Assembly (NCBI GenBank): GCA_963831725.1
Contig: CAWHRF010000003.1
Span: 179,859-243,858, forward strand
DNA length: 64,000 nucleotides
DNA from: an uncultured Solirubrobacterales bacterium
GTDB lineage: Bacteria > Actinomycetota > Thermoleophilia > Solirubrobacterales > Solirubrobacteraceae
Reading direction: 5' to 3'
A program made the translations under genes and the position numbers. Positions 4,253-8,892 of the stretch are shown piece after piece; position 1 is the first letter of the stretch; each line of letters opens with the position of its first letter. The notes beneath the pieces were generated by a model. The model was not told the origin of the DNA. It ran no database searches and saw nothing but the letters and a program-made list of their open reading frames with translations.

Positions 4253-4807
4253 ATGACCTCGACGATAGAGATTGACGACGACCTGTTTGACCTGCTGAAG
4301 CAGCACGCAGAGCCGTTTATAGACACGCCGAGCGATGTTTTGCGTCGCCTGCTTGGCGACGTGTCTGGGTCAACGCAAGCGAAACAGGCGGCGTGCACGA
4401 GGAGAGCCTTGCCTGCGGCTGGCGCACCGACTCGACGGCGGAGTGCCAAAGGCCAGAAAGACAATGCGCGCAAAGGGAGCGTTAAGCGCACGCGAGCGCC
4501 GTCAAACGCCCTCCTGTCAGAGAAGGCATATGAGTTGCCTCTGCTCGACGTGCTAGACACGGCCGGCGGCCGGCTTCCCACGCGCGAGGCCGTTGCAGCG
4601 GTCGGCGAGCATGTGGCGGACCAGCTCATGCCGATGGACCACGACGTAATGGACCAAGGGCAAGAGCGCTGGGAGAGTCGGGTCCAGTTCACCCGTCTGC
4701 GCCTCGTCGAGGCGGGTCTGCTCGAGAAGAACTCCCCCCGCGGGGTCTGGGAGATCAGCGACGCTGGCCGTGAGCGTCTCAAGCGCAGTGCGGCGGTCGT
4801 GGCGTGA
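4253..4807 (+). CDS. SeqA N-terminal-like domain fused to Mrr_N winged-helix domain, no nuclease domain
   Basis: N-terminus TIEIDDDLFDLLKQHAEPFIDTPSDVLRRLLG parallels E. coli SeqA_N (TIEVDDELYSYIASHTKHIGESASDILRRML). C-terminus WESRVQFTRLRLVEAGLLEKNSPRGVWEISDAG fits the Mrr_N signature. Confidence 0.8.
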   Translation: MTSTIEIDDDLFDLLKQHAEPFIDTPSDVLRRLLGDVSGSTQAKQAACTRRALPAAGAPTRRRSAKGQKDNARKGSVKRTRAPSNALLSEKAYELPLLDVLDTAGGRLPTREAVAAVGEHVADQLMPMDHDVMDQGQERWESRVQFTRLRLVEAGLLEKNSPRGVWEISDAGRERLKRSAAVVA

Positions 4808-5448
4808 GCACAGCCACGGCCACCAAGGGCCGCGAGCGCCAGGAGAAGATCCTACGAGCTATCTTCGAGGTCGCGGACGGCACCACGCGCGCGTGCGCTT
4901 ACGAGGACATCGTTGTGCAAGCGTGGAAGATGTGGCCCGAGGAGTTTGGACTGCGCGGCTACGTGCACAAGCACCCGGACTCGTCGGATCTCCACAAGCC
5001 GCTCTATGGGCCGCTCAAGCGCGAAGGCCTCGTGCGAAGCGCCAACAAGAACTTCGGCCTGACCGAGCGGGGTCTAGCGGCCGTCGAGCGTTTGCGCTCC
5101 GGCACTGGGTCTAGGCTCGCGGATCGCGGACGGCTAGAGCGCGATCAGAAGGCCGAGGTGCTGCGGCTGGTCGATCGGCCAGCGTTGCGCCTGCTGCCTA
5201 ACCCCGAGGAGCTGCTCGACACCGATCTCTACGACTTCTACGGCGTCACGGTCCGCACCAAGCCTGCGGAGTTCGCCGGGCGCCTGAAGACCATCGACGC
5301 CGCGATCGACGCTGCCGTTAAGGCCAAGGACCCGTCCATTGAGCTTGAGAAGGTCGCGATGGTCGTCGCTACCCGCGACGCGCTCAAGGCAAGGTATGCC
5401 GATTTGATCTCGGTGCGCTCTGCCGTCAAAGAGAAGACACGGAGCTAA
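4804..5448 (+). CDS. Winged-helix-like hypothetical protein
   Basis: GTGA overlap with the upstream gene. EKILRAIF...EDIVVQAWKMWPEEFGLRGY...LKREGLV...FGLTERG gives a wHTH-type pattern, followed by a helical C-terminal domain. Confidence 0.65.
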   Translation: MSTATATKGRERQEKILRAIFEVADGTTRACAYEDIVVQAWKMWPEEFGLRGYVHKHPDSSDLHKPLYGPLKREGLVRSANKNFGLTERGLAAVERLRSGTGSRLADRGRLERDQKAEVLRLVDRPALRLLPNPEELLDTDLYDFYGVTVRTKPAEFAGRLKTIDAAIDAAVKAKDPSIELEKVAMVVATRDALKARYADLISVRSAVKEKTRS

Positions 5449-5451
5449 CCC

Positions 5452-7233: not shown

Positions 7234-8429
7234 GCGACCGACTCACACACATCGACCTGTTTTCGGGCGTTGGGGGGTTCACCCTCGGGTTCGAGGCCAC
7301 CGGCCTCTATGAGACTCGTCTGCTGGTGGACTCTGACCGCGCCGCGGCAGAAACCTTCAAGCGCAACCGGCCCAGGGTGCCGTTCTGGCCCAAGGATCTC
7401 AGCACGGTCGAAGCTGACGAGCTGCTTGGCTTGGGCAAGCTGCGCCCGGGCGCGCTAGACGTGCTGACCGCCGGACCGCCATGTCAGGGGCTATCGAAGA
7501 TCGGCTCCCGTCAGCTCGATGATGAGCGCAACCTGCTGCTGCGGCACACCTGCGAGCTGATCGACGCCATAAAGCCGAAGCTAGCCATCATCGAGAACGT
7601 TCCATCGCTGTTTTGGGATGGCCAAAGCTCGCTCTTTGACGAGCTCAGCGACATGCTTCACGGTGCCGGTTACGTGCCGATCCCCGAGATCCTCGACGCG
7701 TGGCGGTACGGCGTGCCGCAGCTGCGTCGACGCTTGTTTGTCCTGGCTGTGCGTGAGGACGTCGAAGTGCCGGCCGCCCCCTTCCCCGAGGGCGACCAAT
7801 CGCTTCAGTTCAAGGCGCAGGATCTCATCAAGGCTGCCGGGGTCGATGACCCACAGTGCCCGCCTGGCCTGTCTGTCGAGGAGGCCATCGGGGACCTGCC
7901 AGCTATACCAGCGGGCGGTGGTGCCGAAGCCGTGCAGTATCCGCCCGTGAGCGAGCTTTCCAACTACCAACGCGCGCGACGCTCCGGCGCGACGCTGTTG
8001 TTCAACCACAGGGCCCGTGCGCACTCGCCCGCGATGCTGAAGAAGATGGCGATGATCCAAGAGGGCGGGCGCAACCAGGAGCTACCCGACGATCAGCGCC
8101 TTCGCGCCGATCCGGAGCGCGAGTATTTCTCGCAGGCGTACGGACGACTACACCGCCACGGCATCGCGCAGACCATCACCACCTTCTTCCACAATCCCGG
8201 CAGTGGACGCTTCACGCACTATCGGGACCTGCGCGCGCTCACCGTTCGTGAGGCGGCCCGATTTCAGAGTTTTGACGATGAGTACATCTTCATCGGCAAG
8301 GCCGAGCAGCAGATGCGCCATGTCGGCAACGCCGTGCCTGTGCTCCTCTCCACGGCACTGGCGCAGATGTGCGCGGAGATCCTTGCAAGCGACGGCATGA
8401 AAGCCGCCCTCGTGGATGCCGTCGCGTAA
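7230..8429 (+). CDS. DNA (cytosine-5)-methyltransferase
   Basis: Motifs I DLFSGVGG, IV GPPCQG, VI ENV, VIII QLRRR, IX LTVREAARFQSF and X VGNAVP. TTGA overlap with the ATPase gene. Confidence 0.96.
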   Translation: MSDRLTHIDLFSGVGGFTLGFEATGLYETRLLVDSDRAAAETFKRNRPRVPFWPKDLSTVEADELLGLGKLRPGALDVLTAGPPCQGLSKIGSRQLDDERNLLLRHTCELIDAIKPKLAIIENVPSLFWDGQSSLFDELSDMLHGAGYVPIPEILDAWRYGVPQLRRRLFVLAVREDVEVPAAPFPEGDQSLQFKAQDLIKAAGVDDPQCPPGLSVEEAIGDLPAIPAGGGAEAVQYPPVSELSNYQRARRSGATLLFNHRARAHSPAMLKKMAMIQEGGRNQELPDDQRLRADPEREYFSQAYGRLHRHGIAQTITTFFHNPGSGRFTHYRDLRALTVREAARFQSFDDEYIFIGKAEQQMRHVGNAVPVLLSTALAQMCAEILASDGMKAALVDAVA

Positions 8430-8892
8430 ACCCGCGTCGGTTCCGCCCGCGCCTCCCCCTGCCGCAGGGAACTTCGCTGTGCGGCAGCAGCGGAGCCGCA
8501 CGATGTCGGCCATTCCGAGCGACCGCACCTCGCTAGAGCAACGTTTGGCTTCGCTTCTGTGGGCCGTGGGAGTGCGTGGCTGGCGGCGTTCCGTCTGGGT
8601 CGAACGGACGAAACCCGACTTCGTCTTTTCGCGCCGCCAGATTGCGGTCTTCGTTGACGGCTGCTTCTGGCACGGCTGCCCTCGATGTTGTAGACGCCCT
8701 GCTACCAACGTCGACTATTGGGACGCCAAGCTCGACCGGAACATGGAGCGTGACGTCGAGCAGACGCAGAGGCTTGAAGCGGCTGGCTGGACGGTCCTGC
8801 GCTTCTGGGGTCACGAGATCGATCGCGATCCCGAGGGCTGCGCGCAGCGGGTTAGGCTCGCCCACGTTGGGCGTGCCCAGCTCATCGCCTGA
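8416..8892 (+). CDS. vsr: Very short patch repair endonuclease
   Basis: RSRTMSAI, KPDFVF, AVFVDGCFWHGCP, YWDAKLDRNMERD and GWTVLRFW motifs; overlaps the end of the methyltransferase gene. Confidence 0.93.
   Translation: MPSRKPASVPPAPPPAAGNFAVRQQRSRTMSAIPSDRTSLEQRLASLLWAVGVRGWRRSVWVERTKPDFVFSRRQIAVFVDGCFWHGCPRCCRRPATNVDYWDAKLDRNMERDVEQTQRLEAAGWTVLRFWGHEIDRDPEGCAQRVRLAHVGRAQLIA

Follow-up and report, generated by a model that had tools for sequence, protein, structure and literature searches.

A stretch of 64,000 nucleotides (nt) from an uncultured Solirubrobacterales bacterium (contig CAWHRF010000003.1, positions 179,859 to 243,858; hereafter the window) raises the question of what a C5 cytosine methylase and Vsr do in a compact 4.6-kb cassette (4253-8892) that also encodes two winged-helix proteins and a GHKL ATPase, and no restriction endonuclease. 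Judging by gene content and distribution, the cassette is likely an unnamed defence system that would discriminate self from foreign DNA by methylation. The five co-directional plus-strand open reading frames (ORFs) reported in an earlier note were recovered at the same coordinates (Table 1). They encode 184, 214, 593, 399 and 158 amino acids (ORF1 to ORF5), with the junctions described before, namely 4-nt overlaps at ORF1/2 and ORF3/4, a 3-nt gap at ORF2/3 and a 14-nt overlap at ORF4/5. The five are genuine, undisrupted genes that evolve under purifying selection. Their dN/dS was 0.07-0.44 in 22 gene comparisons with five relatives of 60-97% protein identity, contigs from one public soil run, which may be its sample of origin, are identical to window 3907-9103 with zero letter differences, and contigs from a run of another study span the cassette with about 5% of letters differing. 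Pfam found SeqA_N and Mrr_N in ORF1, DNA_methylase in ORF4 and Vsr in ORF5; HATPase_c_3 matched ORF3 below threshold (E 0.029), and ORF2 matched no Pfam, NCBIfam or PADLOC family. No PADLOC model matches ORF1-3, in agreement with the proposal that the cluster is not a named defence system.

ORF2 and ORF3 are the conserved core of the cassette. A genome scan confirmed 122 stretches; the counts given here rest on the best 80 of them, which represent 77 loci, and on a full-context set of 42 loci that extend 3.5 kb or more upstream and 4 kb or more downstream. The labels of variable DNA-binding proteins (readers) and of nucleases were assigned by hand, and two loci, L043 and L044, almost duplicate each other. 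In 74/75 loci with enough DNA the ORF2 gene immediately precedes that of the ATPase; two further loci are cut, and the only locus with sufficient DNA and no ORF2, L019, is partly deleted. Patristic distances in the ORF2 and ATPase trees are correlated (Spearman 0.75, 61 loci). The full-context loci contain a variable DNA-binding gene in 37, a C5 methylase in 34, Vsr in 27 and an adjacent nuclease in 8 of the 42. The unit is not the five-gene set: SeqA_N-Mrr_N is a Solirubrobacterales-specific occupant of a variable slot. Protein searches returned 588 ATPase matches, one of them from Stigmatella erecta (P0079), and, with an ORF2 profile, 1046 representatives at E 0.001. The core occurs in about nine phyla, including Actinomycetota, Verrucomicrobiota, Acidobacteriota, Myxococcota, Planctomycetota, Elusimicrobiota, Nitrospirota, Ignavibacteriota/Bacteroidota and many Patescibacteria. 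No ORF2 relative was found in phage records or viral contigs, and among 72,556 plasmids there was one distant ATPase relative. No long ORF2 fusion came up in a search aimed at them, a weak piece of evidence, and the one other genus match for ORF2, G030, consists of a lone short winged helix and is not the cassette.

The predicted structure of ORF3 (predicted local distance difference test, pLDDT, 85) contains an S5 domain after the GHKL domain, with an invariant basic residue (R346), and a disordered, Gly-rich linker (414-463). Its ATP-binding motifs are near-invariant among 67 ORF3 sequences (E33 in 65, N37 in 66, DxxG and GGHGNGGK in all 67, T185 in 66). Fold searches retrieved GRP94 (Z 20.0; root-mean-square deviation (rmsd) 4.0, 304 residues aligned), MORC3 (Z 19.6; rmsd 3.5, 298 aligned, residues 9-384) and MORC2 (Z 18.7). 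The MORC label given to ORF3 in the earlier note is thus too strong, since Hsp90/GRP94 is as close as MORC3 and the MORC S5 signature GhXhhpXXRhl occurs in 0/67 sequences. Because of the latter we call ORF3 paraMORC-like, and because Hsp90 scores equally no special kinship to eukaryotic MORCs is shown. The ORF2 model (pLDDT 89) matched the winged helix-turn-helix fold with Z of about 10. Foldseek, run with this model, matched nothing in the PDB or a viral library at E 0.001; profiles of ORF2 and ORF3 gave nothing significant against sequences of solved structures, and in the Atlas ORF2 and ORF3 460-593 matched unnamed clusters only.

Complex prediction scored ORF2-ORF3 at 0.65, against 0.00 for the best of three controls. 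The mark for this score is reached by 116/157 solved complexes and 2/215 mismatched pairs, counts that apply only roughly with the alignments used. The runs share at least 40% of contacts, and partner pLDDT is 82. The interface predicted with confidence brings ORF3 490-503 and 549-557 together with ORF2 138-140, 150-151, 80-83 and 201-205. It covers R499 and D502 of ORF3, invariant in 67/67, together with D139 and R151 of ORF2, likewise invariant or nearly so; D141 is not named in it. The models support binding of ORF2 to ORF3 through their C-terminal domains, and their simplest reading is that the conserved C-terminal motifs serve for docking and do not form a catalytic site. The linker itself varies between lineages: Parcubacteria/Saccharibacteria loci (including L020, L032, L033 and L036) have in its place a beta-rich insert of about 100 amino acids, Ig-like by eye, and in a distant clade (L079, L095) the insert is about 250 amino acids long, again beta-rich and Ig-like by eye.

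The slot occupied by ORF1 in the window is filled by different DNA-binding proteins elsewhere. The SeqA_N-Mrr_N form is present in 8/77 loci (7 intact, 1 remnant), in Solirubrobacterales only, with dN/dS of 0.13-0.30. It has no Mrr catalytic domain, the protein ending at residue 184, and the same architecture is found in the 7 intact relatives. Proteins of the alphaCTD-sigma4-HARE-HTH type fill the slot in 29 loci, and those with DnaA_C and/or sigma4 plus zinc ribbons in 27. Ten of these 27 end in an HNH-type motif, 16, all from Patescibacteria loci, are degenerate, with the zinc ribbon of an HNH domain kept and the His/Asn residues of that domain gone, and 1 is cut. In 2 loci the slot holds an unannotated 324-amino-acid protein, ribbon-helix-helix plus winged helix by eye. 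The variable-slot proteins may be methylation readers; in the available texts of two studies, prokaryotic winged helices can read methylation, as shown for adenine or proposed for other marks (PMC11037411, PMC10853773).

By its motifs ORF4 is an intact methylase: motifs I, IV, VI, VIII, IX and X are present, the catalytic residue is Cys85, and dN/dS is 0.08-0.21. Its top match among solved structures is DNMT1 (E 7e-29), above M.HaeIII and M.HhaI, and palindrome avoidance in the host genome gave no pointer to its target. Cassette C5 methylases fall into four motif-IV types (PPCQG in the window, FPCQPF, CAPCQPF and CPPCQG), lie upstream or downstream of the core on either strand, and form two deep clades in a tree of 46 sequences that carries long-branch warnings; as far as sequences tell, the cytosine methylase has been exchanged repeatedly among cassettes. 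A single reading frame encodes a methylase-Vsr fusion in L012 (9959-11674), L024 (9881-11587) and L030 (9846-11534). In L043/L044 (12178-12801) an HhH-GPD glycosylase gene follows the C5 methylase at the usual place of Vsr, and the glycosylase may repair T:G mismatches in Vsr's stead.

A distant clade, found through an Ensifer adhaerens plasmid and a metagenome scan, has an ATPase 24-30% identical to that of the cassette (hhalign probability 99.8). The ATPase gene is followed by an ORF2 homolog in 16/45 loci, and 13 of these 16 pairs have a methylase nearest M.PvuII (N4-cytosine, E 2e-73), 2 are cut and 1 has none. Vsr and C5 methylase matches were both absent (0/45), and ORF2 D139/D141 are not kept. 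Because this clade has an N4-cytosine methylase and no Vsr, the tie appears to be to cytosine methylation in general, with Vsr tracking C5 chemistry.

A restriction nuclease is not a regular part of these loci. The ORF, Pfam and PADLOC analyses detected no endonuclease gene in the island that carries the window's cassette or in the bounded copy of this island in a relative, L001, and most relatives have no restriction nuclease. The earlier note had spoken of a system with no restriction nuclease; Vsr is itself a nuclease, by family a T:G mismatch nickase. By hand count, 31/42 full-context loci have a methylase with no adjacent nuclease; a stricter count gives 27/42, with L014, L045, L046 and L071 dropped for weaker or more distant nuclease neighbours. 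About 250 neighbouring ORFs were scanned with Pfam and 77 with PADLOC: no helicase cluster is conserved, helicase domains occur only in L052 and L058 among the scanned neighbours, and none of the unannotated neighbours recurs as a cluster. An apparent mutual exclusion of methylase and nuclease (3/31/5/3, Fisher p 0.003) comprises only 4 independent pairs, is not significant on the tree and was left unused. Four loci with no C5 methylase match carry an SRA-like (by eye)-HNH gene or a stand-alone SRA gene (L004 5011-5745, L006 9752-10369, L075 9820-10589, L077 11463-11921), and these may be a form of the cassette that depends on modification in a type IV-like way.

The cassette lies in a tRNA island, as the earlier note had said, although that note's gene list had missed the two island genes at 9149-10477 (HTH_17, weakly PIN-like). 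It starts 610 nt downstream of tRNA-Asp. In L001 and L010, repeats of the tRNA-Asp 3' half (100% identical, 48 and 47 nt) bound the island. A second copy was not found in the window's genome, and we read it as lost. The bounded island of L001 consists of the five cassette genes and the HTH_17/PIN-like pair only, with no integrase or restriction gene among its called ORFs. Because window 4063-10478 is 94% identical to L001 and the flanking genes only 76-88%, the island is, by this measure, horizontally moved, with recent transfer between hosts. Five of six same-genus regions have the P450-tRNA-Asp site with no cassette, the sixth covering the wrong side, and the ATPase was absent from 300/300 family and 400/400 class genomes sampled; the closest cassette relatives are Solirubrobacterales. 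Relatives have defence-type neighbours (AbiE, Shedu, SIR2, AVAST-like and PARIS-like genes) and also serine recombinases. The cluster is thus conserved, mobile and under selection, and patchy spread, mobility and neighbours suggest that its ecology is likely defence-like.

With a confidence just short of even, we propose that the cassette is a mobile system whose methylase marks self and whose GHKL clamp blocks unmethylated incoming DNA with no restriction cut. ORF4 would mark host DNA as self. Vsr repairs T:G mismatches left by 5-methylcytosine deamination, and for that reason we read ORF5 as housekeeping. GHKL+S5 modules form dimers when they bind ATP and in this way trap DNA or loop it, and an ORF3 dimer would act as an ATP-driven clamp. 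The helical domain of ORF2 is predicted to dock on the ORF3 C-terminal domain, and its winged helix would contact DNA; ORF1, or its alphaCTD-sigma4-HARE or DnaA_C-sigma4-zinc-ribbon replacements, would add site choice. Methylation would keep the clamp off self DNA, and on phage or plasmid DNA the clamp would stall replication or transcription. The nucleases of some loci (HNH, SRA-like-HNH) would be optional additions. A more specific version, which we think rather unlikely, is a bacterial counterpart of MORC-plus-methylation silencing, in which the GHKL clamp, steered by promoter- or origin-binding domains (sigma4, alphaCTD, HARE-HTH, DnaA domain IV, SeqA_N), would close on unmethylated invader promoters or origins and act by looping or compaction with zero cleavage.

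Several observations weigh against blocking by a methylation-directed clamp. A C5 methylase is missing in 8/42 and a variable DNA-binding gene in 5/42 full-context loci, and neither is thus obligatory. Frameshifts, deletions or insertion-sequence (IS) insertions affect at least 8/77 loci, some of them maybe assembly errors; broken or partly deleted loci include L010, L019, L034 and L072. A nuclease touches the block in 19/77 loci by hand count, as an HNH-type domain fused to the reader in 10, an SRA-like-HNH gene in 3 and another nuclease in 6. Some unannotated neighbours could also be nucleases, because Pfam and PADLOC often miss restriction enzymes of type II. A nuclease may also act in trans; elsewhere the host encodes an Mrr-type catalytic domain and another C5 methylase. 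In the distant clade, the ORF2 homolog occurs with a methylase and no ATPase in 6 loci (those with 2 kb or more upstream) and alone in about 7 loci, a poor fit to an obligatory clamp or a fixed three-part core.

The alternative that survives best is a cutting restriction system in which the ORF2-ORF3 clamp, on the model of MutL activating MutH or Vsr, would activate a nuclease, be it a cryptic one in ORF3, Vsr or one acting in trans. In the available text of PMC2292703, paraMORCs are proposed to couple recognition to cleavage. The 19 nuclease-bearing loci fit such a system. So does a weak likeness of the ORF3 C-terminal domain to zincin folds (Z 6.0-6.8, with matches including RNase YbeY), and P0240, P0255 and P0263 (3/41 distant homologs scanned) are fusions of an ORF2-type winged helix with DUF4928. 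However, the ORF3 domain has HExxH in 0/67 and HxH in 1/67 sequences. Fold searches with the whole-protein models turned up no nuclease fold in ORF2 or the C-terminal part of the ATPase, although for ORF2 the wide search was dominated by the winged helix and barely tested the C-terminal domain. A hidden nuclease site, which the earlier note had offered as a cryptic new fold, is less likely because most of the conserved C-terminal polar motifs, among them ORF3 R499/D502 and ORF2 D139/R151, sit in the predicted interface, and D139/D141 are lost in the distant clade. Cutting by Vsr is opposed by its absence from 15/42 full-context and 45/45 distant-clade loci. We consider a cutting system unlikely.

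The cassette might instead serve no defence, its methylase and clamp controlling island or host promoters as an epigenetic regulator or a selfish-maintenance module. The variable-subunit domains are of RNA polymerase-related (alphaCTD, sigma region 4, HARE-HTH) or replication-initiation (DnaA_C, SeqA_N) types, and solo ORF2 homologs lie among housekeeping genes in the distant clade, as a regulator would allow. Very patchy spread, recent host-to-host transfer, defence-island neighbours and nuclease add-ons fit conflict systems better, however, and make a regulator decidedly unlikely. The same domains could be baits: phage proteins target host domains of the kind copied by the variable subunit, and the ATPase would sense takeover of sigma4, alphaCTD, DnaA_C or SeqA_N and trigger abortive infection through a toxin such as a PIN protein. 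PIN genes of two unrelated types adjoin the cassette in about 10 loci, VapBC-type upstream in L006, L015, L019, L027, L041, L070 and L075 and the HTH_17/PIN-like pair in the window, L001 and L010. This takeover sensor is improbable, as PIN genes are absent from most loci, the window's PIN-like gene accompanies the cassette in only 2/77 loci (L001 and L010) despite 113 homologs, and the persistent methylase is left unexplained.

Two further possibilities fare worst. The ATPase and ORF2 could be a private MutL substitute aiding Vsr repair of methylase damage, as no MutL scores above the cut-off in the host genome, which is 86% complete, and a MutL-Vsr link is on record in the available text of PMC2292703, but the distant clade keeps the pair beside an N4-cytosine-type methylase where Vsr is missing, as do 8/42 full-context loci with no C5 methylase at all, and we give this very little credence. 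Equally implausible is a remnant of a restriction-modification (RM) operon that has lost its endonuclease: several loci are broken and 16 readers have a degenerate HNH domain, whereas all five genes are under purifying selection, the nuclease-free layout prevails in most loci and in both major branches of the ATPase tree, and a nuclease-free island has spread recently between hosts.

Methylation-directed blocking by a GHKL clamp also has to be set beside known systems. Iyer, Abhiman and Aravind (2008) placed prokaryotic MORC and paraMORC1-5 GHKL+S5 ATPases in predicted RM operons, with a linked superfamily 2 (SF2) helicase in about 70% of MORC neighbourhoods and, in a minority of MORC/paraMORC neighbourhoods, methylases or nucleases and no helicase, according to the main text (PMC2292703). 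That text gives paraMORC1 a C-terminal extension that is conserved and distinctive and co-occurrence with a MORC gene or HNH, paraMORC2 an ExxxH at the S5 end, paraMORC3 a C-terminal RecB-type E-D-ExK nuclease, paraMORC4 a C-terminal or adjacent TIR and paraMORC5 an HxH in the C-terminal domain (PMC2292703). Measured against these published motif descriptions, ORF3 sequences have the paraMORC2 motif in 12/67, the window copy lacking it, and the paraMORC5 motif in 1/67. As to paraMORC3 and paraMORC4, the ORF3 C-terminal domain is modelled as two short strands and three long helices, its matches among those listed for the whole protein are zincin-like, and an acidic-Lys pattern that matched 43/67 sequences is too loose to be informative; the secondary structure is not Rossmann-like, and no TIR appears among the fold and Pfam matches listed for the whole protein. 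With paraMORC operons as described there the cassette shares a GHKL+S5 ATPase with intact motifs, an adjoining cytosine methylase and Vsr, mobility and patchiness; it differs in having no MORC signature, conserved SF2 helicase or conserved endonuclease, and its near-obligatory winged-helix partner and variable DNA-binding subunit are not described in the available main text of Iyer et al. A paraMORC-related family in the available text of PMC8011034 is a different one, fused to histidine kinase domains. In the literature searched, which covered few subscription papers, the ATPase-winged-helix pair is not described; the 2008 supplement or the 2012 HARE-HTH paper might mention the family. The core is, as judged from PADLOC and this literature, unnamed, and its gene content suggests that it works like paraMORC RM-like operons.

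The intact C5 methylase-Vsr tandem is shared with type II RM loci, but the bounded island has no cognate endonuclease and three extra genes including the ATPase. From type IV Mrr, ORF1 differs in having Mrr_N and no Mrr catalytic domain. BREX blocks phage with no cleavage. The analogy in logic is that a methylase marks self and an ATPase scaffold with winged-helix proteins acts on unmarked DNA with no classical restriction enzyme (available text of PMC12839542). BREX PglW shares the alphaCTD/sigma4 module with readers of cassette relatives; however, the cassette methylase is of the cytosine, not adenine, type, its ATPase is GHKL, not AAA+, and no homolog of BrxC, PglZ or PglX, nor any such PADLOC match, was found among the seven island proteins. 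The Mza system has Z1 and DUF4420 partners. Tiamat and MzaABCDE share with the cassette a GHKL ATPase in a defence setting near methylases, whereas Tiamat carries a DUF3883 nuclease (available text of 10.64898/2026.09.30.754977); PADLOC gave no match for the ATPase in the window copy or five relatives. Eukaryotic MORC2, MORC3 and SMCHD1 share the GHKL+S5 fold (Z 18-20) at 11-15% identity; the cassette ATPase has no MORC signature and no CW or coiled-coil domains. These eukaryotic proteins function in silencing linked to methylation, with MORC2 compacting DNA (cited in the available text of 10.64898/2026.09.30.754977).

The features of the window are collected in Table 1. The HTH_17/PIN-like pair likely represents an undescribed toxin-antitoxin subfamily. 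No Pfam model matches the PIN-like protein and a profile search of solved structures was empty; 13 of 23 aligned homologs match the PIN model (best E 0.008), and the homologs with a taxon name are all Solirubrobacterales. Beside another cassette, in L049 (3524-5397), lie thymidylate synthase-like and dCTP deaminase-like genes. The 38 scanned ORFs of window 10500-64000 are mostly ordinary metabolic and transport genes; those at 14340-17315 (991 amino acids) and 61319-63181 (621 amino acids) had no Pfam match at 1e-6. Scans of the window for promoters, terminators and repeats gave nothing informative.

Table 1 Positions of the cassette, its predicted docking sites and its island within the window.
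Feature	Position	Strand	Description
tRNA-Asp	3568..3642	+	ARAGORN; integration site; 3' half (3597-3644) recurs at the island's far end in L001 and L010
Horizontally moved island	4063..10478	.	Five-gene cassette and toxin-antitoxin-like gene pair
ORF1	4253..4807	+	SeqA_N (4-34), basic linker, Mrr_N winged helix (93-177); Pfam
ORF2, core subunit	4804..5448	+	Winged helix (residues 1-100) and all-helical C-terminal domain, predicted to dock on ORF3
ORF2 residues 138-152	5215..5259	+	Conserved D139/D141 and V150-R151-T152; 138-140 and 150-151 in predicted interface
ORF3, core subunit	5452..7233	+	ParaMORC-like GHKL and S5 ATPase (10-385), long helix, linker, helical C-terminal domain
ORF3 residues 492-502	6925..6957	+	R-H-P-x-x-Y-Q-R-x-x-D motif; predicted ORF2 docking site
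ORF4, C5 cytosine methyltransferase	7230..8429	+	Pfam E 2e-56; PADLOC MTase_II match
ORF5, Vsr T:G mismatch endonuclease	8416..8892	+	TIGR00632, 119 bits (cut-off 97.85); Vsr motifs intact
HTH_17 (excisionase-type) DNA-binding protein	9149..9856	+	Pfam; likely antitoxin, island passenger; start codon uncertain
Weakly PIN-like protein	9872..10477	+	Likely toxin of a separate toxin-antitoxin pair

The function of prokaryotic MORCs, damage by nucleases or helicases, is still only proposed from gene neighbourhoods (available text of 10.64898/2026.09.30.754977). In the cassette family neither a nuclease nor a helicase is conserved, yet the ATPase is intact, a fixed partner is predicted and the cytosine methylase appears to have been exchanged repeatedly. 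The family occurs in many Patescibacteria, a group whose defences are poorly known. Its compactness makes directly testable what role bacterial GHKL clamps may have in methylation-linked conflict, and whether a MORC-fold ATPase does methylation-directed silencing in bacteria.

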